Below the pieces are notes generated by a model that saw only the letters and a list, made by a program, of their open reading frames with translations, did not search any database and was not told the DNA's origin. Source: a virus (taxonomy: Duplodnaviria; Heunggongvirae; Uroviricota; Caudoviricetes). Taken from it: 64,000 bases of DNA. The translations under genes were made by a program, and so were the position numbers. Below, piece by piece: positions 6,988-42,400 of the stretch (positions within the stretch are counted from its first letter, which is position 1; the number at the start of each line of letters is the position of its first letter). The stretch covers positions 64,749-128,748 of IMG/VR virus record IMGVR_UViG_3300010049_000010; one strand, given 5' to 3'.

Positions 6988-9249
6988 ATGGCAAAAGAGA
7001 AATTAAACGAGTCAACATACCAAAGTGGACAAAGACCAAAATCAGAAATATTCAAATCAAGTTTTAATAAAAGATTATCCTCATTGTGGGGCTGGCAAGG
7101 CGTACAGAAAAAAGACGCTCAATCAGAGTTTGAAAAAGTAAATGGACTTAGACTTGTAAAAGTAGATGTTCAAAATGATTCATATAGAGTTAAGCACGCA
7201 GCATTAGGTTCGATATTTAAGTCTGCGCCGTTAGCTACATCGTTAAATAAGTATTTCAACGCTTATGTAAATGAAACGACGCTCGTGTATTCTGACATTG
7301 CAGAAAGACAACAAAGATTAAATGAATTAAGATTTGCTGTTTTAAATGATCCATTTTTATCTCGAGTTTGCCAACTTGTATCAGATGAAGCTACACAATT
7401 AGATGACCAAAATAGATTATTATCAGTAGAGTCACCATCAATACCATTCGTAAATAAATGTTATGAATTATTTTCTCAATGGGGTTTAACGCAACAAAGA
7501 ATTAGCTCAGTTTGTTATGACCTCGAACAATATGGTGAAGCACTTTGGTCACATAGAGTAACGGAGAAAGGCGTAGAAAGCATACAGCCTCTTAAAGTTC
7601 CAGCATTAAAAGAAAGATTAGAATTTAGTGCGGCCCGCATGGCTGAAGTTGTATCTCAAATGACAGGCGAACAAGAAACTATGAAGAATCGTTCTACTAA
7701 AATTGGACGATTAGTAGACCTAATTACAACTCGATCAGGCAGAGATCAACTTTCAGATCTAGATGAAAATTTTGCTGATATGTTTAGCTCAAAATTATTA
7801 GGCTTTGAATTCGCCGATGGAATAATAGTACCACCTTGGTTAATTTCTCACTTCAGATATAGAGCTGATAACTCAGAATTTTTCCCTTATGGAACGCCAC
7901 CTCTTTTAATGGCGCTAGCTCCATTTAAGATGTGTTATTCAACAATGCAATTACAAGGATTAGCGAGAGCGAGTTCTTTCCCAGTTCAAATATATAAAGT
8001 AAAACAAACAGAAGGTGTTGGTGTTGCAACCGCATTTGAAACAGTAAACTCAGTTCGAGAAGATTATGAGAATATCGGAGTAAGCCCACTTTCTAATTCA
8101 CTTGAAGTTTATACTGTCAATACTAAAATTTGGGTGCCAGATGGTCTTCTAGAATTCGAAGTGCAAAAATCTGAAGTTGATATGGACTTTACTGGCGACT
8201 TAGAAATGTATCAGGACAGGGTAGCGACAGCTTGTGGTATTCCGAAAGGATATCTTGACCAAGAGTTTGGTGGTTTTGGACAAAGTGGTATCGCATTAAT
8301 GGAACAATACAAACCATTTGGACGACATGTCTATACTATCCAATCTAGTTTCTTGGAAACGCTCGGACAACTTATAAGATTACATTTCGCAATTACTGGC
8401 GAGTTTGACTACAATATCCCATTCGTATTATCAATGCGTTTCCCTGCTGAAGATATGGGTGATGAAAAACGAGAAGCAAGATCAGCTTCAGTTGAACTTG
8501 CTAACGGTATTATTGAGATGTTACAAGGCGTTCTCGGAATGGAAGAAGGTGAACCACTTCCAGAAGATGTAGTAGCAGATATTTTAAGCAAATACACATT
8601 CTTAGATCCAACAGATTTACAACGATGGATCCGATTATCAGCAATAGCTAAAGCTGCAGCTGCCGCTAACTCAGAAGGAGAGGACGCCGATGATGATGGC
8701 AGTGGAGGGGACGACTTCGGCGGAGATATGGGTGGAGGAGATATGGGCGGAGATGATATGGGTGGCGATGAAGGCGGTGGAGATGAGGGTGGTGGAGACA
8801 TGCTTGAATCTATGTCAAAAGAAGCCAGAACATATTATCTTAAAACGAGAAAATTACTCCAAGAAAAAGAAAATAAAAAATTAAAAGAAAAGAAATTAAG
8901 ACGATTAAAAGAAATAAGTGAAAGATATAATGAAAGTAAAAATGAGATATATTTTAATTTCTTAAAAGAAAATCACTTTACTGAATGGCAGAGACCGGGA
9001 AAAGGCCACGAAATGATGATACCTAAAGTATTACCAACTGGCGTATATAAACATATGTATGAGACTTTTAAAGTATTAACTGATGATGCGTCTAAAAACT
9101 TATTAAGCGGAGCAGGCAGATTACGAGAAAGAGAAATGAGCGTAACTGATATGTTAAATGCGTCTAAACAAGATAATATGACTTTAGATGTTATGTTAAG
9201 CCAGCCTCTTCAAGAAAAAATGACTTCTGAGCTCGATGAAAATCTATAA
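6988..9249 (+). CDS. large hypothetical protein (753 aa) with a GGDMGG low-complexity repeat and a basic coiled-coil C-terminus (possible virion protein)
   Basis: The aactaaataat-ATG box abuts the start. It carries the repeat GGDMGGGDMGGDDMGGDEGGGDEGGGDM and then a KKLKEKKLRRLKE stretch. Confidence 0.5.
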   Translation: MAKEKLNESTYQSGQRPKSEIFKSSFNKRLSSLWGWQGVQKKDAQSEFEKVNGLRLVKVDVQNDSYRVKHAALGSIFKSAPLATSLNKYFNAYVNETTLVYSDIAERQQRLNELRFAVLNDPFLSRVCQLVSDEATQLDDQNRLLSVESPSIPFVNKCYELFSQWGLTQQRISSVCYDLEQYGEALWSHRVTEKGVESIQPLKVPALKERLEFSAARMAEVVSQMTGEQETMKNRSTKIGRLVDLITTRSGRDQLSDLDENFADMFSSKLLGFEFADGIIVPPWLISHFRYRADNSEFFPYGTPPLLMALAPFKMCYSTMQLQGLARASSFPVQIYKVKQTEGVGVATAFETVNSVREDYENIGVSPLSNSLEVYTVNTKIWVPDGLLEFEVQKSEVDMDFTGDLEMYQDRVATACGIPKGYLDQEFGGFGQSGIALMEQYKPFGRHVYTIQSSFLETLGQLIRLHFAITGEFDYNIPFVLSMRFPAEDMGDEKREARSASVELANGIIEMLQGVLGMEEGEPLPEDVVADILSKYTFLDPTDLQRWIRLSAIAKAAAAANSEGEDADDDGSGGDDFGGDMGGGDMGGDDMGGDEGGGDEGGGDMLESMSKEARTYYLKTRKLLQEKENKKLKEKKLRRLKEISERYNESKNEIYFNFLKENHFTEWQRPGKGHEMMIPKVLPTGVYKHMYETFKVLTDDASKNLLSGAGRLREREMSVTDMLNASKQDNMTLDVMLSQPLQEKMTSELDENL

Positions 9250-9260
9250 CTAAATATCTA

Positions 9261-11069
9261 ATGGATATTTTACTTCATGAAACGCAATTAAAGCATTTCG
9301 TAACATCTGGAATAACTAATAAGTCAATTCAAAAAGAAGGCACGGGGGATGTCGACCTTAAAAGAGCTCTCTTAAATTATCCCTCATCATTGCATCTCGT
9401 ATATGAAGTAGATTCATCAAAGGGTGGCGCTACTATTTTTACTGCAAACGGACAAGAATTAGCAGGCTTAAATAGGGGATATACGGTCCAACTTTACTTT
9501 GAAAATATAAAAAATATAATGCCAAATAATTTTACGTCTCTTCCATATAGCCAACAAGCTGCTATATTACAGAGAGTGTTTGATAAAGCTGATGTAAAAG
9601 TTCAATGCGATTGTGGAAGTTTTTACTGGCAAGGCATGTCTGAAAAAGACAGCGATAAGGGAAATACACGCCCACCATTTAGTGGGCATCCAGGAAAAGA
9701 TATTTGGGCAAGCAGGCATAATGCAAGCGGGAATGTCCAGGGACAACAATTGTGTAAGCACCTTTGGGCGGCTGTAGAACATATAGACGGGGATATCCCA
9801 AATATAGTAAAGAGCTTGTCTGGCACTAAGGCTACTACCTCAGCTGCAACTGCTACAACACAACCAACTGACGCATTAGAAGCTCCAGACCAACCAGCAG
9901 GATTGCCGGATGAAAGAGTAAAATCTAAAGGTGGAATTAAATCAGATAAGGCTGCGGATGCAGTTCAAGCTGATATTGATGAAGTTCAATCAAGATCAGA
10001 ACAGAATGATTTGCCAACTTTAGACACAACTGAAACAGAAGCTAAACCAGTTGAAGAAGAAACTGAAGCTCAAGAAGGACCTGAAGACGCAGAACCACCA
10101 ATTGAAGAACCAAACGTTAGCAAAAGTTTAGAACCTGAATTAGAAAAAGAAGAAGATGATTTGCTTGAAGAACCTCTAGACACTAAAAGTAAGCCTGTTG
10201 GACTTGTAGAGTCATTTGAAAATATATATTCAAATTCATTAAAAGAAATGATTGCGTTACCAATTCTTAGAACAGGTGGATATTATGATGATATAGAGTT
10301 AGAAGCTGATAATGATGATGCAGATGAAATAAGAGAAAAATTAAATAATATTATAATTCCAGCTAAAAAATGTTTATCATCAATAGGGGTTGATGATGAT
10401 TATTATGCGTCTGAATTGATTTCAATGTTAGGGAAATCAAAAAATGATAAATCATTTGTAATTATAGATACTGATATGAATCCTGTAGGTTTTTCAATAT
10501 TTAAAGTTCGAGGAAAAAAGAAAATAAAAGACATTTTAGTTATTAGTTTTTTAGATACTAATAATATGTCGATTGCAAAACATATTATTGAAAAAGTTGA
10601 AGAGTTTAGAAAAAAAGGTTTTGAACTTGTTTGGGACGTATTTTTAGATAATCCAATCAAACGAGCTTATGATAGATTTGTTGATAAATTAGGCGGGGAA
10701 AGCTGGGATGAATATTTGCATGAAGTTGATCGTCCAGTAAGACGATATAAATTAAGTCCATTAACAGAAAGACTACAAGAAATTTTAGAATATGTAGGCG
10801 ATTGTACAGATGATAATTATGCCGGCTATAGAGATGAAACTTGTATGGCACAAGACTTAGGTTATTATTCTACATTTAATGAAGATTCAGATGGTAAGGA
10901 AAAAGATAGTAATTTTTCTAAAATAAGTGAAAAAGAATTTATTAAAATGTGCCCGGACTTTAAAAAAGTAATCGGACAAAATGAATGGTTATTCCTCAAA
11001 AGATTTGATGACACAGTTTATTGTGCGTATAATTATGATGATGACATTCATTATTTTTGGGCCGACTAA
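9261..11069 (+). CDS. SWIM-type zinc-finger protein with an acidic E/P-rich linker
   Basis: A CxC…CxH arrangement (QCDCGSFYW … QLCKHLWAAVEH), followed by a long acidic low-complexity segment. Confidence 0.45.
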   Translation: MDILLHETQLKHFVTSGITNKSIQKEGTGDVDLKRALLNYPSSLHLVYEVDSSKGGATIFTANGQELAGLNRGYTVQLYFENIKNIMPNNFTSLPYSQQAAILQRVFDKADVKVQCDCGSFYWQGMSEKDSDKGNTRPPFSGHPGKDIWASRHNASGNVQGQQLCKHLWAAVEHIDGDIPNIVKSLSGTKATTSAATATTQPTDALEAPDQPAGLPDERVKSKGGIKSDKAADAVQADIDEVQSRSEQNDLPTLDTTETEAKPVEEETEAQEGPEDAEPPIEEPNVSKSLEPELEKEEDDLLEEPLDTKSKPVGLVESFENIYSNSLKEMIALPILRTGGYYDDIELEADNDDADEIREKLNNIIIPAKKCLSSIGVDDDYYASELISMLGKSKNDKSFVIIDTDMNPVGFSIFKVRGKKKIKDILVISFLDTNNMSIAKHIIEKVEEFRKKGFELVWDVFLDNPIKRAYDRFVDKLGGESWDEYLHEVDRPVRRYKLSPLTERLQEILEYVGDCTDDNYAGYRDETCMAQDLGYYSTFNEDSDGKEKDSNFSKISEKEFIKMCPDFKKVIGQNEWLFLKRFDDTVYCAYNYDDDIHYFWAD

Positions 11070-15110: not shown

Positions 15111-15674
15111 ATGAATACAGGAAGAACAAGAACTTCATCAGTGCAAAGCAGATTAGCAATGGTTAACGATAAAATGAGAAGAAAATGCATTGATAATCAA
15201 TTATATTGGATTAGCAATCCAGTAGACTGTGTGAGAATGAGAACTAGAAAAACATATGAAGGAGATGATGAAAGTTATATTGTCGAAATGTGTGATGTTG
15301 TATCAGCAGTATTCCCGCCATTAGAAGACGTTCCATATCGCAAAGTAATGGTTGATGAAAAAACAAGGGCTTGGTCACTTACAAGTTTAGTTTCTACATT
15401 CGAAGAAGACGCAAAAGAAAAATTTTATACGTTACAAATACCTTATGAATTTGATATAAATGTTGGTGATATGTTATTTCGTATTATGTTAGATGAGTCT
15501 CAAAAATATCCAATAATTATTCCAATTCAAATACAAGAAATGTTAGGCACATTTGGTGGGATGATGTTGATAATGAATAAGTTTGTCGCGACTATTCCCA
15601 CTGACAATTTTCCAGATGAAATTATTAGCACAATTCAACAGATGGCAGAAAGACGTCAAATCATTCGTTACTAG
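15111..15674 (+). CDS. hypothetical protein
   Basis: ORF only. Confidence 0.4.
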   Translation: MNTGRTRTSSVQSRLAMVNDKMRRKCIDNQLYWISNPVDCVRMRTRKTYEGDDESYIVEMCDVVSAVFPPLEDVPYRKVMVDEKTRAWSLTSLVSTFEEDAKEKFYTLQIPYEFDINVGDMLFRIMLDESQKYPIIIPIQIQEMLGTFGGMMLIMNKFVATIPTDNFPDEIISTIQQMAERRQIIRY

Positions 15675-16024
15675 TCATTATCAGGATCAGCAATCAATCT
15701 ATCTGACGGGCCTTCAATTATTGGATCAGTATATTCAGTATAATCACTACCAAAATATTCTGTCTGAAGATTTTCTAATTGATGATTGCCTAATTTAGTA
15801 ACGTAATCAGATAATTCCCAACAACCTTTTCTCCATAGAATAATTTCTTGAATTGCGTAAGCGCCTTTTAACTTTGATATATCAAAATTAGAATTACGAT
15901 ATAAATCTCTGTAATCTGTTTCATACCGAGATTTTCTGAGCGTTTTAATATCATCAAAATAAGATGATGTTACAATTTTTTTATTCCGTCTTGTTTTCGA
16001 AAGTATCAACTGTCCCTCCTGCAT
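15671..16024 (-). CDS. hypothetical protein
   Basis: ORF only. Confidence 0.4.
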   Translation of the reverse strand: MQEGQLILSKTRRNKKIVTSSYFDDIKTLRKSRYETDYRDLYRNSNFDISKLKGAYAIQEIILWRKGCWELSDYVTKLGNHQLENLQTEYFGSDYTEYTDPIIEGPSDRLIADPDND

Positions 16025-16367: not shown

Positions 16368-16606
16368 GCACTATTATTATATACTATAAGGTCATTTTCT
16401 TTTATATCGAACTTAAAACCTATATTTTTTTCTTTATCGGCTAAACCAATAGATCCGATATTTTCGATATCAACCCACTCCGGAACTAACAAAGTATGTA
16501 TTACTTTTCCCTTTTCTTTACCATATAAAACTATTCTAAGTACTTTATTAGTTTCATCATTTTCATCTAATTTTCTAGGTGCTAGTCCTAATTTACAATT
16601 ATTCAT
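16358..16606 (-). CDS. hypothetical small protein
   Basis: ORF only. Confidence 0.35.
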   Translation of the reverse strand: MNNCKLGLAPRKLDENDETNKVLRIVLYGKEKGKVIHTLLVPEWVDIENIGSIGLADKEKNIGFKFDIKENDLIVYNNSAWE

Positions 16607-16982
16607 TTTTTATCTCCTTCTGAACAATGTTTATTTGTACAACAAAGTTTACATACATATTTTTGTAAGGCGCTGCCCTTTAATATTTTATTTATTTTAA
16701 CGATACAAAAATATAAACTATGAATCATTTCTTTTTGTTAAACTCCGTACATTCTGTTACTATTACTTCAGTAGTTTCTTCTATATCATCTAATTTATTT
16801 TTCTTATCACAAGAATATTTGCATTTATTACAGATACTATTTTTCATTTTTCACTTCTATCCTTAAACTTACAATTTATATATTTACATTTATCTGTGCA
16901 TAATTGTTTAGCTATTTCAACTACATCATTATCATATTTATACTCAACTTTTCCAAATAATTCTTTTAATGTCTCATATTTT

Positions 16983-17891
16983 TTACAATTTGGCGTTAAA
17001 TTCATAAAATCCTCCAGGAATGTTCATAACAAATTCTAAATTAGTTCCGTTTTCAACATTCCATTTTTCTAATTCTTTTTTAAGCTTAAACTTATTTATA
17101 TTTATTTCTCTTCCGTCAGAATATGACTCGCCTTTAGTTAAATCTGATTCATTTAATTCTATTTCCATTCCAATTCCAAAATAAGGTTCGCGATGGATTT
17201 TAACTACTTCATTTAATAATGCGTACACTACATCTTTTTCTTTTTTGAGCACATACATATCAATTGAGTCATGAACATAATTAAACACTCTAGATCTAAA
17301 TCCCCATTTTTTGAGATGCATATTTATACAAGTAACGTCAGGCATTGCGTGAACGATTTCAGCAGTTTGAATAGATGTATTACTGGCTACATTTTTTAGA
17401 TTAGAAAACATTTTAGAATATAATTTTCTGTCAATGCCAATTAAATTACCTTGGGCATTTTTAGACATTAATCTTAATTCTGGTAAGTGTCGAACTGGAC
17501 CAACCCAAGTTCTAACGTAACCATGTTTCATCGCGAACTTCTGTTCTCTTTCTACTCGCTCTAATAATGATGGATAAGTTTTGAAAAATAATTCTCTTAG
17601 TTTATTTCCCAATATAACGTATTTTAATTCTTTTTCGCTTAATTTATTTGTGGGATTTAATTTAGCTTGATTATATGCTTGCCAAAGATTGAAACTATCA
17701 AAAGCAGTTTCACAATCATCTTCAGTGAAACCTGCAGCTTTCATTTGTCTGCCTAATGTCGGACCTTGACAAGCAAATAATGTTGCAAGACCTACAGTTT
17801 TACCATTAAATCTCATCTGTTTAAATGGACTAAATTTTTTCAATTTGAGAAAGTCTTCCATTGTCATATCACGTTTTGTTATCTTATACAT
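16983..17891 (-). CDS. family-A DNA polymerase, C-terminal fragment (fingers O-helix plus palm motif C)
   Basis: KQMRFNGKTVGLATLF matches motif B (RRxAKxxNFGxLYG), and YVHDSIDMYV matches motif C (VHDE). Confidence 0.75.
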   Translation of the reverse strand: MYKITKRDMTMEDFLKLKKFSPFKQMRFNGKTVGLATLFACQGPTLGRQMKAAGFTEDDCETAFDSFNLWQAYNQAKLNPTNKLSEKELKYVILGNKLRELFFKTYPSLLERVEREQKFAMKHGYVRTWVGPVRHLPELRLMSKNAQGNLIGIDRKLYSKMFSNLKNVASNTSIQTAEIVHAMPDVTCINMHLKKWGFRSRVFNYVHDSIDMYVLKKEKDVVYALLNEVVKIHREPYFGIGMEIELNESDLTKGESYSDGREININKFKLKKELEKWNVENGTNLEFVMNIPGGFYEFNAKL

Positions 17892-17907
17892 TTATAATAA
17901 ATTAACC

Positions 17908-18144
17908 TCAATCAAATAATTCACAAGAGTCAGTCACATAATTTTCATTTTTGAGCGTTGCGACTTCATGTTTTAAGTTTTCAATTTCTTCAATTAGATA
18001 TTTAAACATTGGAAAAATATCTTCATTACGAGTATAACCACTCGTTTTTGGACAGCCTTTTTCATATTTACAATTATGACAATCTGGAATCATCATTCCA
18101 CAATGCTGTTTATATTCTAAACAATATTCTAATGGTTGGCTCAT
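17908..18144 (-). CDS. small Cys-rich protein located between the two polymerase fragments
   Basis: CLEYKQHCGMMIPDCHNCKYEKGCP; it ends …CELFD-COOH, which resembles the LFDEEEL family tail. Confidence 0.4.
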   Translation of the reverse strand: MSQPLEYCLEYKQHCGMMIPDCHNCKYEKGCPKTSGYTRNEDIFPMFKYLIEEIENLKHEVATLKNENYVTDSCELFD

Positions 18145-18479
18145 GATAACTCACTTAATCCTTTGAAATAATCTATATTTTTTTGCATACATTCCATTAC
18201 GTATTCTAAATCTTTAATTTTTTCTTCATATTTTGATTTCATTGCCTGTAATTCAATATCCTCACAAGAAATAAAATTATAACAAGGTCCTTCATTGGGA
18301 TATGAATCAGGAGTCGCGACATTACAAAATGAAATAGATTTAATATCTCCCATTTCAAAACTTATATCACAATCATGTAGTTTAATAAATGGAGTATTTG
18401 CGTTTGCTGGATTTCCAAAAAAGATATTGTAATGTTTAAGCATAATCAATCCACTCATCTGTTTGTTGGAATTCCGCAC
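18141..18479 (-). CDS. small protein located between the two polymerase fragments
   Basis: ORF only; I see no HNH, GIY-YIG or LAGLIDADG motif. Confidence 0.4.
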   Translation of the reverse strand: MRNSNKQMSGLIMLKHYNIFFGNPANANTPFIKLHDCDISFEMGDIKSISFCNVATPDSYPNEGPCYNFISCEDIELQAMKSKYEEKIKDLEYVMECMQKNIDYFKGLSELS

Positions 18480-20541
18480 CCTTAATTATAATTTCATCTT
18501 CCTCATCAATCATTCCGTATCTTTTAACTTTTATTTTTTGTGTTTCACCAAAGATAATTTTCTTTCCAGTTTCTTCACATTCAATTTCAATTACTTTAGT
18601 ATGAATTGGTTTAACAAAAGTTCCAACAGTTGTAGCTGAGTGAGCATCTTTATGTCCCTTTTCACCGTAGATTTCATAAGCAATTTGATCCACTCCGCCT
18701 TTGCTAATTCCATTATCAGCGAGTGCAAGACGAAATTGAAGTGAAGCAAAGTCGGCGGAAATTACAAGCCACTCGTCACTGTTATGTGATTCTGGTTCTC
18801 CAATTAAATCATCTTCTAATTGAGTAAGATTAGGCGGAGCTTCAAATAATTTCTTAATATGTTTAGCGATAGTTGAACCTGATGGTATTTGTTGAAAATT
18901 TGGATCATTCATTGCGTGGCGGAAACTTTCTGTACCGAATGTATTACAATTCGGATGTATTCTCCAAGTTCCATCTTCATGTTGCACCATCCATTTTCTC
19001 CAACCTTCAATAAATGTTCCTAATGCAACGTTATATGATCTAAAGTCTTTAAGTGTTTTAATTCCCGGAAGATTCAATAATTCATACTCATTAAGAACTG
19101 GGTCACCTGTTCCATATCCTCCGGCTTTTGATTCTGAGACTTTTGGCCATTTCATTTTCTCAAATAAAGCGCCTAATTCTTTTGGAGATTCAAATTTATA
19201 ATTTTCATCTACATTCCAAACTTTGGCTAATTCTTTTCTTAATTCTATTATTTTATCTCTAATTATTTTTTCAGACGCATCAAATTTTGCTGGACTAAAA
19301 TATATTCCTTCATATTCTACTTCAGTAACAGTGTTTGCGTTTGGTATCATTATTTCTTTATAGAAACGATTTATAGTCCATTCGGGTTGTTTCTCATTTG
19401 GGAATTTTTTATCTAACCATTTGCAGTGTTCATCGAGCGCTAACTGTAATCTCCAAGTCACTATTGGATCTAAACCGGCATATTTACAAAGCACCCCTCT
19501 CGGAATTTCGAGATAATTATTTACTTTTAATTTCTTTTTAATTTTATCTAATTCGTCATCATAGCCTATAAACTTTCCACAATAAAATACTGCCCCAGTT
19601 TTTAATCCCTTCGGCCTTCCTGAATTTATCGCATGAGATAATAAAGCCGTATCATCTGTTGGAAACCAACCTTTAACACCGTTCCACCAAATAAACTTCA
19701 TATCGAACTTTGCGTTAGATAAAGTGATTCGTCTAGCAGAAGTCAGTACTTGTTTTAATATTCTTTTATCTACAAGTTCCCAAGGTAATACGAAGCCGGT
19801 ATAACCATCATTGCTAAATTGAATATAACCTAATTTATCTCGTATAAAATGGAAACCGCCTGTTTCTGTATCAACTGCCAATAATTCAGAATTGACAAGT
19901 GATTTTAATATATCAGAAGCTTCTTCTTTAGAATTGGCCAAGACGATACTATAATCTCTATCATCAAGTGATTTAGTAGTCATATCATCATTTTGAATTA
20001 ATTTTAATCTTGAACGAAAAGTTTTAGTAAAGAAGTTAGTTGGATCATTTCCCAATTGAATCGGATATAAATCTTTAATGTTTGCGACTGGATAAATCCA
20101 TTTGTCGGGACCGCCAATAAATTCCGAACCGCAAAAATATCTTGGACTATTCAATTTATCATCAATAAATTCATAATAGTTTACGTCACCTGATTTGTTT
20201 AGAATACGAATTGTTGATCCGAAAGCGATTATACATTCGCATTCTGTTTCATCAAAACTTAGATATTGTCTCCAAGGACTTTCAATTGAGAGTAAAAATG
20301 TAGTTGAATCTTCTTTTGGATTTTTTACAGATATTGCAGATACAATATTATATGATTTAATACCTGCTTTAATTATATCTTTTTCTAAAGTGTCTAAATA
20401 TATTTTTGATAAAATATCATCAACCAGAAAGAGATAATATTTCTCCCCTGGTTGATATTTTTCGCGTAATAAGCAATCATGCTTTTCTAAATTTTGTTTA
20501 GGTTTTTCCGTTTGTCGAACGCCACCAAAGTTAAATGCCAT
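18436..20541 (-). CDS. family-A DNA polymerase, N-terminal fragment (3'-5' exonuclease plus palm motif A)
   Basis: Exonuclease motif I LLAVDTETGG, motif II SNAKFDMKFI and motif III KYAGLD. The pre-motif-A signature NTFGTESFRHAMNDPNFQQIP matches TGRLSSxxPNLQNIP, and motif A is VISADFASLQFRLAL. Confidence 0.8.
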   Translation of the reverse strand: MAFNFGGVRQTEKPKQNLEKHDCLLREKYQPGEKYYLFLVDDILSKIYLDTLEKDIIKAGIKSYNIVSAISVKNPKEDSTTFLLSIESPWRQYLSFDETECECIIAFGSTIRILNKSGDVNYYEFIDDKLNSPRYFCGSEFIGGPDKWIYPVANIKDLYPIQLGNDPTNFFTKTFRSRLKLIQNDDMTTKSLDDRDYSIVLANSKEEASDILKSLVNSELLAVDTETGGFHFIRDKLGYIQFSNDGYTGFVLPWELVDKRILKQVLTSARRITLSNAKFDMKFIWWNGVKGWFPTDDTALLSHAINSGRPKGLKTGAVFYCGKFIGYDDELDKIKKKLKVNNYLEIPRGVLCKYAGLDPIVTWRLQLALDEHCKWLDKKFPNEKQPEWTINRFYKEIMIPNANTVTEVEYEGIYFSPAKFDASEKIIRDKIIELRKELAKVWNVDENYKFESPKELGALFEKMKWPKVSESKAGGYGTGDPVLNEYELLNLPGIKTLKDFRSYNVALGTFIEGWRKWMVQHEDGTWRIHPNCNTFGTESFRHAMNDPNFQQIPSGSTIAKHIKKLFEAPPNLTQLEDDLIGEPESHNSDEWLVISADFASLQFRLALADNGISKGGVDQIAYEIYGEKGHKDAHSATTVGTFVKPIHTKVIEIECEETGKKIIFGETQKIKVKRYGMIDEEDEIIIKGAEFQQTDEWIDYA

Positions 20542-20551
20542 ATAAATTAAA

Positions 20552-21304
20552 TTAACTTAATTGAATATTTTCTTTTTTAGATTTTGAACCTTTAACAGGA
20601 ATTTGATTTGGAATAATTGCGCTCTTTTTTGGAACAGTAATAGAAAGCATTCCATTTTCTAATTCAGTTGATGCGTCTTGCAGAGAATATTCATCTGAGT
20701 CTATATAAATATTTATCTCTTGAGTAGTTTCTTTTAAACCTTGACAAATATAGATATAATCTTCTCCAATTAAATCATCATCTATATTTCGAGCAAATAA
20801 TTTGAGCATGAAACCATCTTTAATTATTTGTAGAAATATTCTATCAGAAGTGTAACCAGCAATTCCAATTTCGTAAATAATATTTTCATAATTGTCTTTT
20901 TTAATATTATATGGCAATTTTGAGTCTATTAAATCTTTATCTAGTTTATTTGGAACATTTTTTTGTCTGTGATAAAATTTAATTTCTTCTTCTGTTTGAG
21001 GTTGTATGTTTGGAATGATGTGAACCGCTGGAACTGATTTTACAGTGCCTGGAATTAATTCATCAGTGTTCCAACCATTATTCCAATGACCACCAGTCGT
21101 TCCATTTCTTTGATTATAAAAATCATCGATATGCATTGGATTATAATCTACAATGTGATTATTTTCTGGACGATAAGTCCAATCAGTGTTAGTAGTTACA
21201 CGATAGTGACCTGTTACATCTCCAGTAGTATTTTGATGATTAGACATCGAAACATTTCTACCTTGAGATCCGAATACTGCTTTGAATTTTTCTTTTGTGT
21301 TCAT
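20552..21304 (-). CDS. Hsp20/alpha-crystallin-like protein
   Basis: C-terminal ENGMLSITVPKK matches the alpha-crystallin-domain signature GVLTxxxPK. GGAGGA Shine-Dalgarno site upstream. Confidence 0.45.
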   Translation of the reverse strand: MNTKEKFKAVFGSQGRNVSMSNHQNTTGDVTGHYRVTTNTDWTYRPENNHIVDYNPMHIDDFYNQRNGTTGGHWNNGWNTDELIPGTVKSVPAVHIIPNIQPQTEEEIKFYHRQKNVPNKLDKDLIDSKLPYNIKKDNYENIIYEIGIAGYTSDRIFLQIIKDGFMLKLFARNIDDDLIGEDYIYICQGLKETTQEINIYIDSDEYSLQDASTELENGMLSITVPKKSAIIPNQIPVKGSKSKKENIQLS

Positions 21305-21490: not shown

Positions 21491-22129
21491 TTAACTGAAA
21501 ATATCGGGCAATTCTTCCCTGCATTTATCTCGTAACATATTAAATACTGCTTGAACATCGGGATGTGCTTTTTTACTGCATCGTAAATTAAACATATGAA
21601 ATAATTGACGCCAGTTACATTTCATATAAATATCACACTTAGTTGCAAGTGGTAAAACAGACGCAGCATTTTCAGCATTTAATTTATTATCTAATAATTC
21701 AAGATATCTTTGTTCTGATTCAATCATTGAATGATACCAAACACTATATTGTTTATTAAGTGAGCCATCTTCATTTTCTTGTTTAAGAACTGTCGGTTGC
21801 ACTACTGTAATTTCATTACCAAATTTATCTTTACTATAATTACAGTAACGTGTAGATTCAATTGCGAATGAACAATGACGATGTCGAGTAATGTCTCGCT
21901 TTGATCTAATATCAGTTGTGATTTTACAAATAAAATTACCAAATTCAATCATTGCACCATGGTCTTCTTTTAATAACATTTGATCAAATTTAATATAACT
22001 TGTATCAGTAATTTTATCACCTGATTTCCAACAATTGCGACCAGCTAATTCGATAAATTTTGCTTCCATTTCCCATTGTTCTTTAGTTGCAGGATAAATT
22101 ATTTCTGCACTATGTTGTACTATTTTCAT
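21491..22129 (-). CDS. thyX: flavin-dependent thymidylate synthase ThyX
   Basis: The ThyX signature RHRHCSFAIES (RHR-x7-S) and a length of 212 aa. Confidence 0.8.
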   Translation of the reverse strand: MKIVQHSAEIIYPATKEQWEMEAKFIELAGRNCWKSGDKITDTSYIKFDQMLLKEDHGAMIEFGNFICKITTDIRSKRDITRHRHCSFAIESTRYCNYSKDKFGNEITVVQPTVLKQENEDGSLNKQYSVWYHSMIESEQRYLELLDNKLNAENAASVLPLATKCDIYMKCNWRQLFHMFNLRCSKKAHPDVQAVFNMLRDKCREELPDIFS

Positions 22130-22401: not shown

Positions 22402-22602
22402 TTAGAATCTAATTGTATGGACTTGAGGTCCCTGTTGTTGCATTCTTTCCATTTGCATTCTCTGATCTTGAGTAAGTTCCATATCTCCCCTTACACCACA
22501 TTTTTGACATGCAACTGGGAAACCTTCGTGAATTTTATAAACTAATAACGATTGGCATTCTTGGCATTGAGCCACACTGTAAGCCATTGATTTTAATATC
22601 AT
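22402..22602 (-). CDS. small zinc-ribbon protein
   Basis: CQECQ … CQKCG. Confidence 0.4.
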   Translation of the reverse strand: MILKSMAYSVAQCQECQSLLVYKIHEGFPVACQKCGVRGDMELTQDQRMQMERMQQQGPQVHTIRF

Positions 22603-22957: not shown

Positions 22958-23371
22958 TCAATATCCTCCTTCTTGTTCTATAAACAGTTCATCGTCAGAC
23001 CATTTAATTTCAGCATTGCATAAATAAGCATCAATTGAGTCACCGCAATCATCACCAAAACCACCTGTATAAACAGTCCAATCTTTTTTCAAATAACTTA
23101 GAATAATATCATCAATTTCAGTTTCATCTTCTAAACCATATTCTTCGCAATATTCTTTGATGCCTTTTACACCTTTATATTCTTCTCCATTTTCACATGC
23201 CGCGACGAATGTTTTACCCCAACCTTTAAAAGAGTTTTTAATTGGATAATTTTCTGGCGTAACACCAAATATCTCATCAATTTTCTTTTCAAGATCTTTT
23301 TTATTTCCATTAAATGCTAACACAAATGATGATGAACTTGAATTGCTCACGAATCCATTTCTAATTTTCAT
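22958..23371 (-). CDS. MKIRNGFVSNSSSSSF-family protein (paralog 1)
   Basis: Its N-terminal 16 aa are shared with the ORFs at 24035 and 30393. Confidence 0.55.
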   Translation of the reverse strand: MKIRNGFVSNSSSSSFVLAFNGNKKDLEKKIDEIFGVTPENYPIKNSFKGWGKTFVAACENGEEYKGVKGIKEYCEEYGLEDETEIDDIILSYLKKDWTVYTGGFGDDCGDSIDAYLCNAEIKWSDDELFIEQEGGY

Positions 23372-23539
23372 ATCTGTTTCCTTTTTTCTTTAATTTTTTC
23401 TAATATTTCTATTTCTCTTTGTATTGCGCTAATTGATCTATCTTCAACTGTAAGAAAATTATCAGCTATAGCGATACATTCTAATTTTTCACATAATGCT
23501 GTACAATTACAAGTATCATCTTTATTCAAATATCCACAT

Positions 23540-23878
23540 TTATCCATTTTTTACTTCCCAATCTTGTTCGTTATTTAAATGTCCATTTTTATCAATAGTT
23601 TCATAAATATCTGCTTTGTATTCAAAGCCATTTCTTTCTAAGTTTCTTTTTACACGTCTCAATAAAGTTTTATCCATTATTAAAATACTTTCTTCCAAAA
23701 ACATTAAAGCTTTAATTCCAGTAAACCATAATGGGGGAGTGAGTAGAATTAACATTCCGATGTGATGATCAGCACCAAAATAAATTATAAATGGTATCGC
23801 AAAAATAAATAATATTACACAATAAGAAATAAGTTTAATGAAACAATAAATTAAATCTCTTGTAAATGATTTAAACAT
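23540..23878 (-). CDS. small membrane protein (two TM helices)
   Basis: Hydrophobic helices. Confidence 0.4.
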   Translation of the reverse strand: MFKSFTRDLIYCFIKLISYCVILFIFAIPFIIYFGADHHIGMLILLTPPLWFTGIKALMFLEESILIMDKTLLRRVKRNLERNGFEYKADIYETIDKNGHLNNEQDWEVKNG

Positions 23879-36896: not shown

Positions 36897-38147
36897 TTAT
36901 GAATTTATGTTCAAACCTACTAACTTCCCAAGTTTAGTGTCTTCTTTAACAAGTTTTAATAAATAAGGGTTTGATTTAGCATCAAAAATATTTTTAGATA
37001 AATCAGTAATTGATCCATCTTTTACTGCCATATTATATAATTCAGTTCCTTTATAAATAATAACAGAACAATAAAAAACTCTATCAAAACCAATTTGTTG
37101 TATCTCTGGGATATTATATCTTACATCATTAATATTGTCCCATGGAAATCCAATTAGAACATTAGAACGAACTTCAAAATCATATTGTTGAAATAATTTA
37201 ATCACATATTCTAAATTATCTAATTTTGTTAGACCTAATTTTCCTACATTTTTCATTGAGTCAAAAGATACTGAATCAAGATTAAGACATACAACACAAA
37301 TTTTTGAATTATTTCTATCACATATTTCACTATATAATCTGACAAGATCTTCATCAACCATAGTAAAATCAATATCTAAAAAATATATTTTGCAATTTTT
37401 TTCTTTAAGAAATTGCATGATAGTCATCCAATATTCTTTTTCAGCCCAAGGCACATCATCTAATATAAGAAACGATTGAGCTCCATTATCTATGTAATAT
37501 TGTAAATCTGAAATTACTTTTTCTATAGATGGATATGACCTAATACAATTTCTTATTAAAGGATTTGGACAAAATACGCATGCATTTTCGCATCCTCTAG
37601 TAATCATAATAGGCATGTGTTTTTCTATTCTTTGAATAGGTTTTAATATATCTAAATCTTTTAAAACATAATTATAAACATTTTCTTTTCTCATTGTATA
37701 CCAATAAGGAGTATTTAGTAAATATTCTTTTTTGTTTTCAGCTTCAATAAGTTCTTTCATCGGAACTTCACCCTCACCCATACAAATACCATCAAAATAT
37801 TGAATAAGTTTTTCTTTTTCTATATTAGAATAATATCCGCCCGCTACAATAAGAGAATTTTTATATCTTTTCTTTATTTTAGTAATAAATTTAATAAGTC
37901 TTTTTTCATCATTTGGAATAAAAGAGAGAGATACTCCTACAATGTCTGGTTTCCAAAAAATGAATTTAGGAGTTCTATATATTATTTCAAATTTGTTAAT
38001 AATATCTGAACAAAATGATTTAATACATTCTAATCCAAAATGAAAAAATTTGATAGAGAAAAAAACTTTATGAAATGAATATGCGAGAAAATGAAATAAA
38101 TCAAATAAAGTAAATTTATTATAATATTTTATTAGCAATATATTCAT
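36897..38147 (-). CDS. B12-binding-domain radical SAM enzyme (paralog A)
   Basis: N-terminal Rossmann-like cobalamin-binding region (…SLIVAGGYY…GEGEVPMKELIE) and a CX3CX2C motif (GCENACVFC). Confidence 0.65.
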   Translation of the reverse strand: MNILLIKYYNKFTLFDLFHFLAYSFHKVFFSIKFFHFGLECIKSFCSDIINKFEIIYRTPKFIFWKPDIVGVSLSFIPNDEKRLIKFITKIKKRYKNSLIVAGGYYSNIEKEKLIQYFDGICMGEGEVPMKELIEAENKKEYLLNTPYWYTMRKENVYNYVLKDLDILKPIQRIEKHMPIMITRGCENACVFCPNPLIRNCIRSYPSIEKVISDLQYYIDNGAQSFLILDDVPWAEKEYWMTIMQFLKEKNCKIYFLDIDFTMVDEDLVRLYSEICDRNNSKICVVCLNLDSVSFDSMKNVGKLGLTKLDNLEYVIKLFQQYDFEVRSNVLIGFPWDNINDVRYNIPEIQQIGFDRVFYCSVIIYKGTELYNMAVKDGSITDLSKNIFDAKSNPYLLKLVKEDTKLGKLVGLNINS

Positions 38148-39360
38148 CTTTATATAACCTTTTAGTTTCTTTGTTTATTACAAGTTTCTTGTATTTAATT
38201 TTGGTCCAAGGAGATACTGCAATAAGTTGTTCATCATCAATTAAGTTTTGTTTTTTAGCTTCATTATAAAGTTGTGTTCCATAATATAATTCTAATTCAG
38301 CTAAATTATAACTATCAATATTATATTCTTTTACAAAATCATTTATTAGTGGGGAATAATCTATATTTTCTTCCCATGGAAATCCATAAATAAAAATAGT
38401 CTGTACTTTTAATTTATATCTTTGAATTAATCTTATTTTTTCTTTAAAAATTTCAAAAGTTCCAGGTTTTCCCGTTTTATTAAAAAATTCCTCTGTCGGA
38501 ATACAATCTATATTAAGAGCAATTGCTGATTTAGATTTATTACAACCAGCATAAGAGTTTAAAATATTTTCAGTAATATAAATAAAATTATTATGTAATA
38601 CATATGCGGTAGCTTTATTTTCAGTTATAAAATCTAAAGTTTCACACCACAATTTTTCATTTTTAAAAGGACTATCATCTATAAAGAAAAAACCTTTAGC
38701 TCCTTTTGATATATAATATTTTATATCTTCTTTTACTTTTTCTATTGATTTCTCTCTATATGGCGGCGAATTATCAAACTTACAATAAATGCATTTTTCT
38801 GGACAATTTTTAGTAATAGTTAAAACTACTTTTTTACCAGTAAATTCTACTGGTTCTAATAAGTCTAAATCTTTCATAATATATGAACTAAAATTAGTTT
38901 TATTTTTAGTGTACCAATATGGTGTTTGTTCTAAGTAAGCTTTTTTATCAGTAGCTTCTAACAATTCTTTAAATGGTATTTCTCCTTCTCCTAAACATAT
39001 AGCATCTACATAATCTATAAATTTTTCTTTCATCACTTCAGCATACATTCCACCTAAAATAATAAGAGAATTAGGAGATCGTTTTCTTATTTTTTGAAAT
39101 ATTTTTATATTTCTATTATGATCATTATGAAGAATAACCATTGATATTGCAATTATATCGTAATTTTTCTTAAACTCAAAAAACCACGGCATATAATCAA
39201 ATATCTTCATAAAAGCAGTTGTATGTTTTTTACAATAAGATTTTATAGTAAGAAGTCCGTGATTCTTAAAAAAATTGTCAAAATTTATAAGTTTGAACAC
39301 TATCTTAAAAAATAAAGAAAGACCATTTTTATATAAGTTTCCTATCATCAATACTTTCAT
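38119..39360 (-). CDS. B12-binding-domain radical SAM enzyme (paralog B)
   Basis: Same architecture as paralog A: …SLIILGGMY…GEGEIPFKELLE plus CX3CX2C (NCPEKCIYC). Confidence 0.65.
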   Translation of the reverse strand: MKVLMIGNLYKNGLSLFFKIVFKLINFDNFFKNHGLLTIKSYCKKHTTAFMKIFDYMPWFFEFKKNYDIIAISMVILHNDHNRNIKIFQKIRKRSPNSLIILGGMYAEVMKEKFIDYVDAICLGEGEIPFKELLEATDKKAYLEQTPYWYTKNKTNFSSYIMKDLDLLEPVEFTGKKVVLTITKNCPEKCIYCKFDNSPPYREKSIEKVKEDIKYYISKGAKGFFFIDDSPFKNEKLWCETLDFITENKATAYVLHNNFIYITENILNSYAGCNKSKSAIALNIDCIPTEEFFNKTGKPGTFEIFKEKIRLIQRYKLKVQTIFIYGFPWEENIDYSPLINDFVKEYNIDSYNLAELELYYGTQLYNEAKKQNLIDDEQLIAVSPWTKIKYKKLVINKETKRLYKDEYIANKIL

Positions 39361-39493: not shown

Positions 39494-42400
39494 ATGTATA
39501 CTTTGCGGGAAAGATATGAACAAATCAAGTTACGAGAAGATACTCACAGTTTGCATGTAGAAGACAGTCTTCTTAAGGGAAAAGATTATATAGAGAGAAT
39601 GCTAGGTTTCTTTAATCATGCTTTAGAGATAGTAGAGGGAAGTGATGATAGTAGTCAACCTAGACCTACAATTAAGTATGATGGAGCGCCTGCAATCGTA
39701 ATGTGGTCACAAAGAGAAGACATCAATGAAAGTTATGGTATTAGCACAAAGTCACTTTTTAACAATAATCCTAAATATTATGGTTCTGACGAGGAAATAG
39801 ACGCCGACAAAGATCGGGCTGATAGTCTTAAAATTAAGATGAAAATGGCTCTTAAATTAGCAGCTGAAAAGATTATTCCAGAGGGTGAGATTTGGCAAGG
39901 CGATTTGCTTTGGACAGCAGGTGATATTAAGAGCATAACTGATGATGGAATAAATTACGTTATTGCAAAACCAAATACTTTAGGATATGCAGCTCCAGCC
40001 GATTCAGATGTCGGTGAGAGAATGAAGAATAGCGATATTGGCATTGTATTTCATACGAGATATAAAGGTCCACTTGATGAGGTTAAACAGTCTAATGATG
40101 TGGATATTTCCGAGTGCAAAAATATACCAGATTGGGCATTTATATTTGACGCGAAGCTTCCCGATTTAAGGGGGAAAGTAACTTTTGATTCTAATGCGTC
40201 TCGTGGACTTAAGAATAGTATTGGAGAATTAAGAAGAAAATGCGCTGATTTAATGGACCACGAAAATTATGATGATTTAGTAAGCAATGAAGATTTTATC
40301 AATTTTTATATGATGACTCTTCAAAACCACAAAATAGACAAAGGTGAAAAAATTGATCCTGAAACTTTTAAGGAAGAACTTCATGATTGGATTAATGTAA
40401 AAATGCACAAAAAATATAATGACTTGAGCAAGTTAAAAACGAAAGCTGGCAGAGATAAAAAGCGAGACACTATTTTATCTACTAGCAGAGAATTACATTA
40501 TATTTGCAGAGAAAATGGAGACTTAATTCACAGTATAGCAGACGCATTATATTGGGCGACTTATATTAAGGGAATTTTGATAGAACAATTTAACAAAGCT
40601 CAAGAATGGATAACCAAGGTTGAAATGAGATCCGGAGGATGGAAGAACACCTCAGGCGAAGGATTCATGATTAGCGATAATGATGGAAAATTTGTTAAGT
40701 TTGTAGACAGATCTGCATTCAGTTATTTTAATAGGTCATCTGAAGTTGTAAAGGGCTTTGAAAGAATAACGGAAAGCGAAGAAAATAAGTGGAATAGGGA
40801 TGAACGCCTTGGCAAAGTTGGTCTTTATGATGATGATGATTGGCATGAAGCAATAGAAGATGATGATGAAGATAAAAATACTGAGGTTGATGAAAATGAA
40901 CAAGTTATTGAAATTGAAACAGAATTATCAGTAGAAGAAATTGAAAATATATGTCTCCGTGTTTTATCTGAAAGTTTAAGAGAAGCTTTTGAGATGGTGG
41001 ATACAGATAGCATTGAAAAAAGATTAAAAGCGATTAAGAGTGATAAATCTGTTACTTGGGTTTGGATAGAAAAAATAAATAAAAAAGCTAAAATTCATTA
41101 CTCAAGAGCAGAAAAAAAACCATCTGGAGGAAATTGGATAGAAGTTAAAAGAAAAGTTGAAATGTCTAATTCATCTAAAAAACCAATTGATAATTCAGAA
41201 AGATTTTTAATTAATAAAAATAATGATCAAAATAAAAATTTATGTTTAATTATAAAAAATATTTTAATTCCGAACATAGAAGACTGGTCTATTTGGAAAA
41301 ATATTGGTTTACAAATAAGTAAATCAGATTCGAGTTCATCTATTTTAGTTAATGTTTGGAAGGACGATGACCCTTTAGGTGGAAATGAAATAGAAGAACT
41401 CTCACTTGGTTTAAAAGGAGTGGATGGTGAAGATTGGTCTTGTAGTGATAATAAAAATAAAAGATTAAGTTTAACTTATAAAAAATTTACAATAAATTTT
41501 AGAAATACAGGTGGAGGAAAAGCAACTGTTATTTATTTTGATAAAAATGGAAACTTAAAATCAATTGAAAAATCATCAAATAAATTTAGTGATTCTGTTA
41601 TTACATCTATACAAGAATCATTAACAGGATTATTTTTAACAATGTCTTTTAATAATGATAAATCAAATTATGCTAAATATGAAAAAATATTATTAACGAT
41701 AGATAATCCTATTTTTGTTAAAAACTTAGTTCAAAAGGATTCAAGCACTTTTAATGTTTCAGGTTTTTCTAATGTTTTAAATTCTTGGAGAGAATCAATA
41801 AAAAATAGTTCTTCTGAAATAATTAAAAGAAAAATTCTAGGTTCATATAAAAAATTATCAAGTGGGCAATGGAAAATAATTCATCCAAGTCTTTATAAAA
41901 CTGACGATTCATATCTTAATTCTATTATTGATTTTAATCCTTATTTAAGTAGACATCTTTTTTCTAATTTTAATTATAAAAATATAATGAGTAGAGATAC
42001 TGCAAATCCTGCAGATATATTTATTATTAATACTGGAACATCATCTTATGATAAATCATTATCTTATGATAGTTTAATTGAAGATTTAAATAATTTAAGA
42101 AAAGATCAATTATATAAAAAAGGTGGAGAATTAAAAAGTTTAACAAGTGTTACCGCATCCACTGAAAATATAAGAGATGCTTTTGTTGCTACACTTAATA
42201 AATATTTTGATGCCGGAATTCTTATTGGAATAAGTTTAAAGAAAACTACTAAAAATGCTAATGTAATTAAATCAGCAACTCATAATTCTTTAAGTGAAAA
42301 TTTAAATAAAGATGATTTATCTTGTTTTGTTTTTAATGATAACAAAAATGATACAATAAAAAGTTTTTCTTTCTCAGGACCACCATATTTAAATAAACAA

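Follow-up and report, generated by a model that had tools for sequence, protein, structure and literature searches.

Organization of the polymerase locus

The window analyzed here is a 64,000-nucleotide (nt) stretch of the IMG/VR virus record IMGVR_UViG_3300010049_000010 (positions 64,749 to 128,748 of that record), taken from a phage contig of approximately 328 to 330 kb (328,413 bp in the ENA contig). Coding across positions 16983 to 20541 lies entirely on the minus strand and comprises four open reading frames (ORFs) of 701, 100, 78, and 302 amino acids. Judged from sequence, an uncultivated jumbo phage here probably encodes its replicative family-A DNA polymerase as two subunits, whose genes are separated by two small cargo genes.

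In reading order, the gene for the large polymerase subunit (18436..20541; 701 amino acids) is followed by cargo ORF a (18141..18443; 100 amino acids), cargo ORF b (17908..18144; 78 amino acids), and the gene for the small polymerase subunit (16983..17891; 302 amino acids). The genes are tightly packed: the 701- and 100-residue ORFs overlap by 8 nt, with the ATG of ORF a overlapping the stop codon of the larger ORF (ATGCTTAA), the 100- and 78-residue ORFs overlap by 4 nt (ATGA), and a 16-nt spacer separates the 78- and 302-residue ORFs. The 544-nt insert between the halves is fully coding, its start and stop codons overlapping. A TAA stop follows residue 701 of the large subunit, and the 302-residue ORF has its own ATG, with an in-frame TAA directly upstream. 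The first-pass annotation of this DNA had extended ORF a to a GTG at 18479; the ORF exists, but its start is likelier to be the ATG at 18443, as public gene calls agree. A scan for promoter- and terminator-like sites between the halves found no more than expected by chance, which is weak evidence against separate transcription, and the four ORFs may form one translationally coupled unit.

The Pfam matches on the 701- and 302-residue ORFs are complementary parts of one DNA_pol_A domain (PF00476), covering profile positions 7 to 152 of 381 (E = 5.9e-17) and 239 to 369 of 381 (E = 2.2e-8), respectively. The PHROG 17 family, annotated as DNA polymerase, likewise matches both halves over consecutive profile ranges (624 to 1071 and 1056 to 1242). 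The catalytic domain, which Pol I-like enzymes carry on a single polypeptide, is spread here over two. The original description of a family-A polymerase in two ORFs with two small genes between them is borne out by these matches and by the presence of all four ORFs, and every motif string quoted in its support is found in the translations (LLAVDTETGG, NAKFDMKFI, KYAGLD, NDPNFQQIP, DFASLQFR, RFNGKTVGLATLF, and YVHDSID).

A Logan contig (SRR10512954) contains the 3559-bp region with 100% identity, and the 328,413-bp ENA contig contains it with one mismatch; in both, genes of 701, 100, 78, and 302 amino acids are called, as in the window. Because three assemblies agree on these 3559 bp, the arrangement is not an assembly artifact, a possibility that had been raised when the split was first described.

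The large subunit

The 701-residue protein is composed of an N-terminal region of about 200 residues, a 3'-5' exonuclease domain, the thumb, the palm as far as motif A, the first helices of the fingers, and a beta-rich tail. Residues 1 to 202 (window 20541-19936) match no Pfam or PHROG family and show 59.6% mean identity among close relatives. The exonuclease domain (residues 203 to 370; 19432..19935, minus strand) matches Pfam DNA_pol_A_exo1 (PF01612; E = 1e-9), and its Exo I, II, and III motifs can be read from the translation as DTE, NxxFD, and YxxxD strings. A phmmer search against PDB sequences aligns residues 262 to 573 with Klenow residues 81 to 376. Motif A (DFASLQFR; 18730..18753, minus strand) contains the catalytic aspartate, D597. 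Its glutamate, present in the DYSQIELR form of the motif, is replaced clade-wide by glutamine, so that the canonical acidic residue is absent.

Immediately ahead of motif A, a loop designated site 1 (residues 576 to 592, ...PPNLTQLEDDLIGEPESHNS...; 18766..18816, minus strand) links the F-x-x-PP strand to that of motif A. It is uninterrupted in the window, where it forms a short loop only (PPNLTQLEDDLIGEPESHNSDEW), and corresponds to the second break point of relatives whose polymerase is in three pieces, in which the tails of the shorter class of N-terminal pieces (N1, described below) start. With 46.5% mean pairwise identity, this loop is the least conserved part of the large subunit. The LEDDLIG string within it may be the remnant of a deleted module.

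The C-terminal tail module (residues 645 to 701, VIEIECEETGKKIIFGETQKIKVKRYGMIDEEDEIIIKGAEFQQTDEWIDYA; 18439..18609, minus strand) makes up the N-side part of a fingertip insertion, with the break at its end. Its mean pairwise identity of 58.6% is close to that of the exonuclease and palm (60 to 65%) and above that of the site 1 loop (46.5%). The tail is about as conserved as the catalytic domains.

The small subunit

The 302-residue protein begins with a head strand (MYKITKRD) and continues through the O-helix (motif B) and the remaining fingers into the part of the palm that carries motif C. Its start reads MYKITKRDMTMEDFLKLKKFSPFKQMR-FNGK-TVGL-ATLF, and phmmer aligns residues 96 to 142 with Klenow residues 462 to 508. 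Motif B, with the pattern R27-x3-K31-x3-L35-x3-F39 (17775..17813, minus strand), was located by alignment and coincides with helix 144-159 of the AlphaFold2 (AF2) model of the concatenated halves described below. We take its four residues to be the equivalents of Klenow R754, K758, F762, and Y766. Motif C (YVHDSID; 17259..17279, minus strand) was likewise located by alignment and reads HDS rather than HDE throughout the clade (VHDS), so that the canonical glutamate is absent. Over 26 small-subunit homologues with 35 to 75% identity, R27, K31, F39, H207, and D208 are invariant. The position equivalent to 762 is leucine in the window and its nearest relatives and phenylalanine in the others, and the position equivalent to 766 is phenylalanine. 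Together, the glutamine at the steric-gate glutamate position of motif A, the HDS of motif C, and the residues at positions 762 and 766 may confer unusual nucleotide selectivity.

Position of the break

The break had been placed exactly between the palm and the fingers. Klenow alignments and alignments of the homologues instead locate it at the fingertip, inside the fingers. The large subunit runs past motif A through the segment ...HKDAHSATTVGTF, which we take to correspond to DIHRATAAEVF of Klenow, and then continues for about 55 residues to its stop, while R27 and K31 of the O-helix lie about 25 residues past the start of the small subunit. The chain is hence cut after the DAHSATT helix and an extra tail of about 55 amino acids, some 25 residues ahead of the O-helix. 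This position, between the DAHSxT helix and the O-helix, is inside a lineage-specific, beta-rich fingertip insertion that has no counterpart in Klenow.

Structure models are in line with this placement. The AF2 model of P0028, a homologue that is continuous across the break (mean predicted local distance difference test [pLDDT] score, 74.4), matches Bst and Klenow Pol I with a probability of 1.0. It contains strands at residues 73 to 79, 85 to 89, 93 to 96, and 108 to 111, followed by a linker (residues 123 to 135; pLDDT < 50) that coincides with the cut point of the split homologues. After the linker, a strand (residues 138 to 144), corresponding to the head, leads into a helix that continues into the O-helix. 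When the segment of the window's large subunit that corresponds to the motif A piece of three-piece relatives (N2) was concatenated with the C half, AF2 returned a Pol I palm and fingers (mean pLDDT, 76.2), with strands formed by the first part of the tail and by YKITKRD.

Homologues and their arrangements

The C half was searched against 5.8 billion protein clusters and retrieved 55 homologues down to 36% identity, nearly all of them stand-alone proteins of about 290 to 340 amino acids that start alike (M-[YL]-K-I-T-K-R). The N half has about 58 specific homologues (E below 1e-80) in two length classes. Those of the first class (about 685 to 714 amino acids) end at the same place as the window protein, and those of the second, N1 (about 613 to 653 amino acids), stop after ...F-x-x-PP and a tail, without motif A. 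When contigs were paired by length between the two homologue lists, N and C pieces were found to co-occur in 10 contigs. Contigs carrying homologous genes reach 293 to 386 kb, and one of 299,025 bp is the largest of a termite-gut virus-particle metagenome. Among 50,697 phage records, megablast with the region gave no match, and tblastn gave only distant PolAs with less than 25% identity. IMG/VR gave no match to the N half used as a single sequence but did so when scanned with an alignment of C halves.

Arrangements were compiled from 30 loci and vary widely. The two halves overlap by 8 nt in L009 (ATGTATAA), lie 30 nt apart in L007, and are separated by a 53-residue ORF in L008. In L001, L002, and L006, which include the closest large relative (75% identity in the C half), a 280-residue IspH/LytB gene (Pfam E = 1.7e-61) stands between them. 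Permuted orders also occur: the C gene directly precedes the N gene in L020 and lies upstream of an N1-type gene in L013 to L018, with no motif A piece found within these loci. In L010 to L012, a separate 124-residue motif A piece is encoded on the opposite strand, 3.3 kb from the C gene, and the exonuclease piece is more than 10 kb away. Three pieces (N1, N2, and C), with various genes between them, are present in L003, L024, and L025, and N2 and C are fused into proteins of 465 to 469 amino acids in L004 and L005. The homologues P0028, P0032, and L019 are continuous across the window's break position, P0110 (889 amino acids) is uninterrupted at the other break, site 1, and the outgroup (28% identity), L022 and L023, is unsplit, with L023 a single ORF of 842 residues.

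Since the pieces of some relatives are permuted or on opposite strands, neither splicing in cis nor read-through joins them, and the pieces are translated separately. In a neighbor-joining tree of the C pieces, the window is placed next to L024 (three pieces) and L001 (two pieces), and the fused L004 and L005 are nested inside split lineages. From these placements, fission at the fingertip either is ancestral or has happened repeatedly, some lineages have re-fused their pieces, and the second break comes and goes between close relatives.

A repeated module at the two break sites

The N1 proteins that end at site 1 carry tails of the form EFIEVEDDKGNKWDNSLYINVITQRGSVRFEDLVETDEILEY, and the longer proteins that end at the window's break, designated site 2, carry tails of the form VIEIEDDNGKKIIFGEEQKIKIKRLGLVDDEKELVIKGKEFTEEDIFLDY. 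A hidden Markov model (HMM) of the site 2 tails scores the site 1 tails at 15 to 23 bits, while none of 2,700 shuffled tails exceeds 8.9 bits, and the reciprocal HMM, built from site 1 tails, also cross-matches. Alignment of the two tail families with hhalign gives a probability of 95.9% (E = 5.9e-9) over 44 columns. By these profile comparisons, the site 1 and site 2 tails are homologous. The pieces that follow the breaks also begin alike, with MLKIEK, MGLKITK, or MALKIKR after site 1 and MYKITKR or MLKITKR after site 2. Where tail and head are joined in line, the connection is a short hairpin in L019 (...GDILEGKKVVSIEHR) and a 13-residue linker in P0028. A search of all other ORFs of the window and 26 loci found the module only in polymerase pieces.

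These features suggest that the tail and the head would together form a single small beta domain that spans the chain break and helps to hold the subunits together. The module sits before motif A at one site and before motif B at the other, the gene is cut at the same hairpin in each copy, and both the presence of the module and the split state vary among near relatives, once beside an HNH-like ORF. A bolder proposal, which we regard as rather unlikely, is that the paired tail-and-head beta module is a portable in-frame element residing at two loops of one polymerase. If so, it would be a self-complementing clasp that may be spread or exploited by selfish DNA and that lets an essential enzyme tolerate a cut at the DNA level and re-form non-covalently, a third solution besides self-splicing introns and inteins.

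Proposed architecture and alternative explanations

The reading that we favor, and that comparative genomics supports well enough for us to think it likely, is a split, heterodimeric polymerase. It was the preference of the first-pass annotation over a pseudogene, and it gains support from the occurrence of the halves as separate conserved genes across a deep clade, from the invariant catalytic residues, and from the dispersed pieces. The polymerase gene would have undergone fission at the tip of the fingers, inside the lineage-specific beta-rich insertion. The 701-residue subunit would provide the exonuclease, the thumb, most of the palm including the motif A aspartate, and the first fingers helices, and the 302-residue subunit would provide the O-helix with motif B, the remaining fingers, and the His-Asp of motif C. 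Since motif A and motifs B and C are on different chains, the active site would form only upon non-covalent association of the two polypeptides. The insertion itself is the likely clasp, acting on top of the normal large interface between palm and fingers: the strand that closes the tail (...DEWIDYA) and the one that opens the small subunit (YKITKR) would be the two arms of a hairpin that is continuous in uninterrupted relatives. The two small genes would have landed in the junction after fission. Two observations weigh against this picture. The second half of the tail is modeled with low confidence in the concatenated structure (pLDDT < 50), and the glutamine of motif A and the HDS of motif C mean that activity or substrate preference could differ from those of canonical enzymes.

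Among the alternatives, an insertion that carries novel cargo ORFs, in the form of a group I or II intron whose splicing restores a single polymerase mRNA, would accord with the frequency of group I introns in phage polymerase genes (literature cited in PMC10580990) and with the undefined function of the insert ORFs. It is nevertheless extremely improbable. No Rfam family matches positions 16500-21000 at E <= 1 under permissive filters, and none reaches the gathering score anywhere in the window. The 544-nt insert, whose fold had been proposed as a check for an intron core, has a folding energy of -96.3 kcal/mol, no better than that of its shuffles (-96.06 +/- 5.84; z = -0.04), and the overlapping start and stop codons leave no non-coding space for such a core. 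The halves of L009 have no intervening sequence at all, the pieces are permuted or on opposite strands in relatives, and the flanking tail and head are conserved as translated protein under selection, so that removal of the insert would leave extra residues. A decaying pseudogene or a sequencing or assembly error has an equally negligible probability. One relative (L024) does have an 8-nt frame disruption right after motif A; the three assemblies of the window are nonetheless the same, both ORFs are intact, the catalytic residues are invariant over 26 sequences of 35 to 75% identity, the break point is conserved clade-wide, and the tail retains its 58.6% identity. It is also improbable that a homing-endonuclease cassette split the gene in this genome on insertion and left the small ORFs as its remains. 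Such cassettes have precedents in T4-like phages (mobE in nrdA and seg in gene 43; PMC2988022), cargo turns over fast at the junction, and L024 has a 292-residue ORF with an HNH-like motif, recognized by eye, at the other break site. Set against this, the deepest branches have the same break, and it also exists without cargo (L007 and L009) and with unrelated cargo (L001 and L008); ORF a is an ORFan, the sole homologue of ORF b lies away from polymerase genes, and no HNH, GIY-YIG, LAGLIDADG, or other nuclease family is found in the window ORFs with Pfam or PHROGs.

Cyanobacterial split DnaE inteins are a natural comparison for dispersed polymerase gene pieces that carry short complementary N- and C-terminal elements at the break. 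Were the tail and head a split intein, protein trans-splicing would ligate the halves. By eye, the tail shows the pattern G....[DE]L...D.IL, as in Hint domains, the head M-[YL]-K-I-T-K-R resembles what we take to be the start of a DnaE C-intein, and the pieces are dispersed like split dnaE genes. This explanation is very unlikely all the same, as no Hint or intein family is matched in Pfam and a search of PDB sequences with the module profile yields no intein at E <= 10. With about 55 residues in the tail and about 8 in the head, both elements are short. The module has no conserved Cys or Ser at its start, no TxxH, and no HN at its end, and several residues (T, D, E, or Q) occur at the +1 position. 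The window protein is devoid of the splicing residues, and in-line homologues keep the module as a permanent insertion, both unlike split DnaE. The pieces might, lastly, no longer cooperate, with the large one acting, for example, as an exonuclease or DNA-binding factor alone and the small one in another role. That they are sometimes more than 10 kb apart and on different strands and that motifs A and C are non-canonical would suit this view. We give it a low probability: the pieces co-occur in every contig long enough to judge, and the invariance of the motif A Asp, the motif B R, K, and F, and the motif C H-D would not be expected in isolated fragments.

Comparison with known split polymerases

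The closest functional analogue of the split heterodimer proposed here is the gp43A/gp43B polymerase, encoded bicistronically in the T4-related Aeromonas and Acinetobacter phages 25, 44RR, 31, 65, and 133 (Petrov et al. 2006, 2010; PMC2988022, PMC3061061). In these reports, that split lies at the hypervariable fingertip, and the distance from one ORF to the other ranges from 2 bp to 3 kb and in some cases accommodates an endonuclease gene. The two halves co-purify as an active enzyme. Pfu polymerase engineered with a fingertip split is likewise fully active, and its substrate tolerance is changed (PMC3061061). As in the window, the gp43 break is at the fingertip, and each side keeps its share of the catalytic motifs. 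The gp43 enzymes, however, belong to family B, so that the window enzyme, a family-A protein, is not a member, and the reports, as far as consulted, describe neither three-piece or permuted versions nor a repeated module at the break site (PMC2988022, PMC3061061).

Splits of PolA itself have been reported at other positions. In the OM43 phages MEP401 and MEP402 and in related marine viral genomes, PolA is split inside the polymerase domain, with one small ORF of unknown function between the pieces, and the authors left the question of an intron open (PMC10580990; OP830906). The MEP401 break is located just before motif A, as gp13 ends ...IKTLFLSRYGE and gp15 starts MILNADAKALEW, which is the same loop as site 1 of the three-piece members of the present clade. 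The window break, by contrast, comes after motif A and before motif B. BLASTP finds no similarity between MEP401 and the window proteins, which indicates that the MEP401 split was an independent event; these are 43-kb podophages, and their pieces have no tail module. In the T7-like cyanophages S-SBP1 and S-TIP37, PolA is split at the boundary between exonuclease and polymerase through a frameshift and a new start codon (PMC10201439, PMC12695635), a configuration that resembles the 8-nt overlap of L009. This was called a first for PolAs in a family-wide survey, where it is the sole splitting described (PMC10201439). LUZ24-like phages have an exonuclease/polymerase split annotated as DNA polymerase part I/II (PMC3890496). 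Whereas the breaks of the cyanophages and LUZ24-like phages coincide with a domain boundary, that of the window divides the catalytic polymerase domain itself.

Jumbo phages are known to encode a minimal Pol III alpha in two distant genes and the beta/beta' subunits of a multisubunit RNA polymerase in pieces (PMC7824862). These belong to other enzyme families and are similar to the window in that separate genes are predicted to rebuild one active site. The same survey found T7-type PolA in its group 3.1, with no split reported there (PMC7824862). Our literature search, whose coverage was incomplete, retrieved no report of a PolA cut between motifs A and B, of a three-piece or permuted PolA, or of paralogous modules at break points.

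The window and its relatives would extend natural polymerases with genes in pieces to the family-A catalytic core, in a clade of phages of about 300 to 390 kb in which motif A and motifs B and C are on different chains, sometimes on three. For the engineering of split Pol I-type enzymes, they point to two places where a cut is tolerated in nature and to a candidate clasp module. For annotation, the halves are easily called partial genes or pseudogenes, and marker surveys of PolA that take position 762 and nearby motifs from a single ORF would overlook the halves or place them wrongly. With frequent fission, re-fusion, and relocation of pieces and a fast turnover of cargo at the junctions, the clade is a tractable system for the breaking and re-joining of essential genes.

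The cargo genes

The two genes between the window's halves had been described as Cys-rich, which holds only modestly (5 Cys in 100 amino acids for ORF a and 6 in 78 for ORF b), and as lacking recognizable homing-endonuclease motifs, in agreement with the absence of nuclease, Pfam, or PHROG family matches. ORF a is an ORFan that retrieved only itself among 5.8 billion clusters. ORF b has one homologue among 1.84 billion representatives, P0144 (43% identity; E = 8.4e-10), which is encoded on a 1.9-kb contig and flanked by genes unrelated to polymerase. The two proteins share a C-x13-C-x2-C-x5-C arrangement of four conserved Cys, a coiled-coil stretch, and a terminal SELFD, which corresponds to the acidic ELFD tail noted earlier (...SCELFD in the window). 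L024 has two ORFs at the equivalent place, and these show no significant similarity to the window cargo (E = 0.29 and 0.55).

A causal role of these genes in the split, implied by the first description, does not agree with the relatives, where the split is present without them (L007 and L009) or with other cargo (L001 and L008). Since the junctions of relatives are empty or differently filled, the small genes, on this comparative evidence, did not cause the split but are passengers inserted later into an existing gene junction. The polymerase region is also flanked by several further tiny ORFs with CxxC-type cysteine patterns (window 16725-17005, 22402-22602, and 23368-23547), so that small proteins containing Cys seem to be common in this genome at large and not peculiar to the junction.

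In relatives, Pfam and PHROG searches of the cargo genes gave only a strong IspH/LytB match and a weak ART-PolyVal match. The former (L001:7154-7996, also in L002 and L006; 329-kb phage contig) is a full-length IspH/LytB protein of the isoprenoid pathway, an unusual auxiliary metabolic gene in an unusual place. The latter (E = 0.011) is to one of several mutually similar genes that recur between polymerase pieces in two distant relatives (L003:7224-7979 and L025:8258-9034 and 7705-8142, minus strand), which display H-G-S/T ... GYDGF ... E patterns. The 292-residue ORF of L024 (L024:3207-4085) lies exactly between N1 and N2, and its HNH-like motif (EFEWHHCLPR...NNQALLTYKEHYRAHE) was recognized by eye. 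Neither Pfam nor PHROGs give a match, so that a homing endonuclease at break site 1 is no more than a possibility. The frame disruption of N2 in the same 12-kb contig (L024:4078-4170; ENA ERZ27257297) appears as an 8-nt insertion (TGAATTAA) after ...GDFASLQ, beyond which the sequence continues in another frame. Faulty assembly, recent inactivation, or recoding could each account for it.

Neighboring genes and related contigs

No tRNA genes or Rfam families are found in the 64-kb window, and its large ORFs at 6988-9249 and 9261-11069 match no Pfam family. Positions 21491-22129 correspond to the ThyX (Thy1) gene called in L028, 34694-36064 match an ATP-dependent DNA ligase, and 36897-38147 match a B12-binding radical SAM protein, which has a neighbor of similar size (38119-39360). 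A 1171-residue protein with DUF6267 is encoded at 39494-43009. About 1 kb downstream of the C half, a 117-residue ORF (15671-16024) resembles by eye a 112-residue gene just upstream of the fused N2-C gene of L004 (L004:66-404), the two sharing the pattern VTSSYFDD..NSNFD..ELWR.GC.ELS; from this likeness, the gene order around the polymerase pieces is reshuffled.

Precomputed Pfam annotations identify, a few kilobases from the polymerase, a hybrid sensor histidine kinase/response regulator of about 700 residues in L001 (14257-16374) and L024 (8671-10770), with dCache_1, HisKA, HATPase_c, and Response_reg domains. They also identify a eukaryotic-type topoisomerase IB (Topoisom_I and Topo_C_assoc) at L003:1-586 in the 299-kb termite-gut virome contig LSPZ01000001. 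Among 185,579 species-representative genomes, the only match is L030, a 306-kb contig (JAZNWZ010000130.1; 40% identity in the C half) binned in a gut metagenome-assembled genome of "Candidatus Fimenecus sp." This is probably a jumbo-phage contig, whose presence in the bin is either a hint of a Clostridia host or a case of mis-binning.

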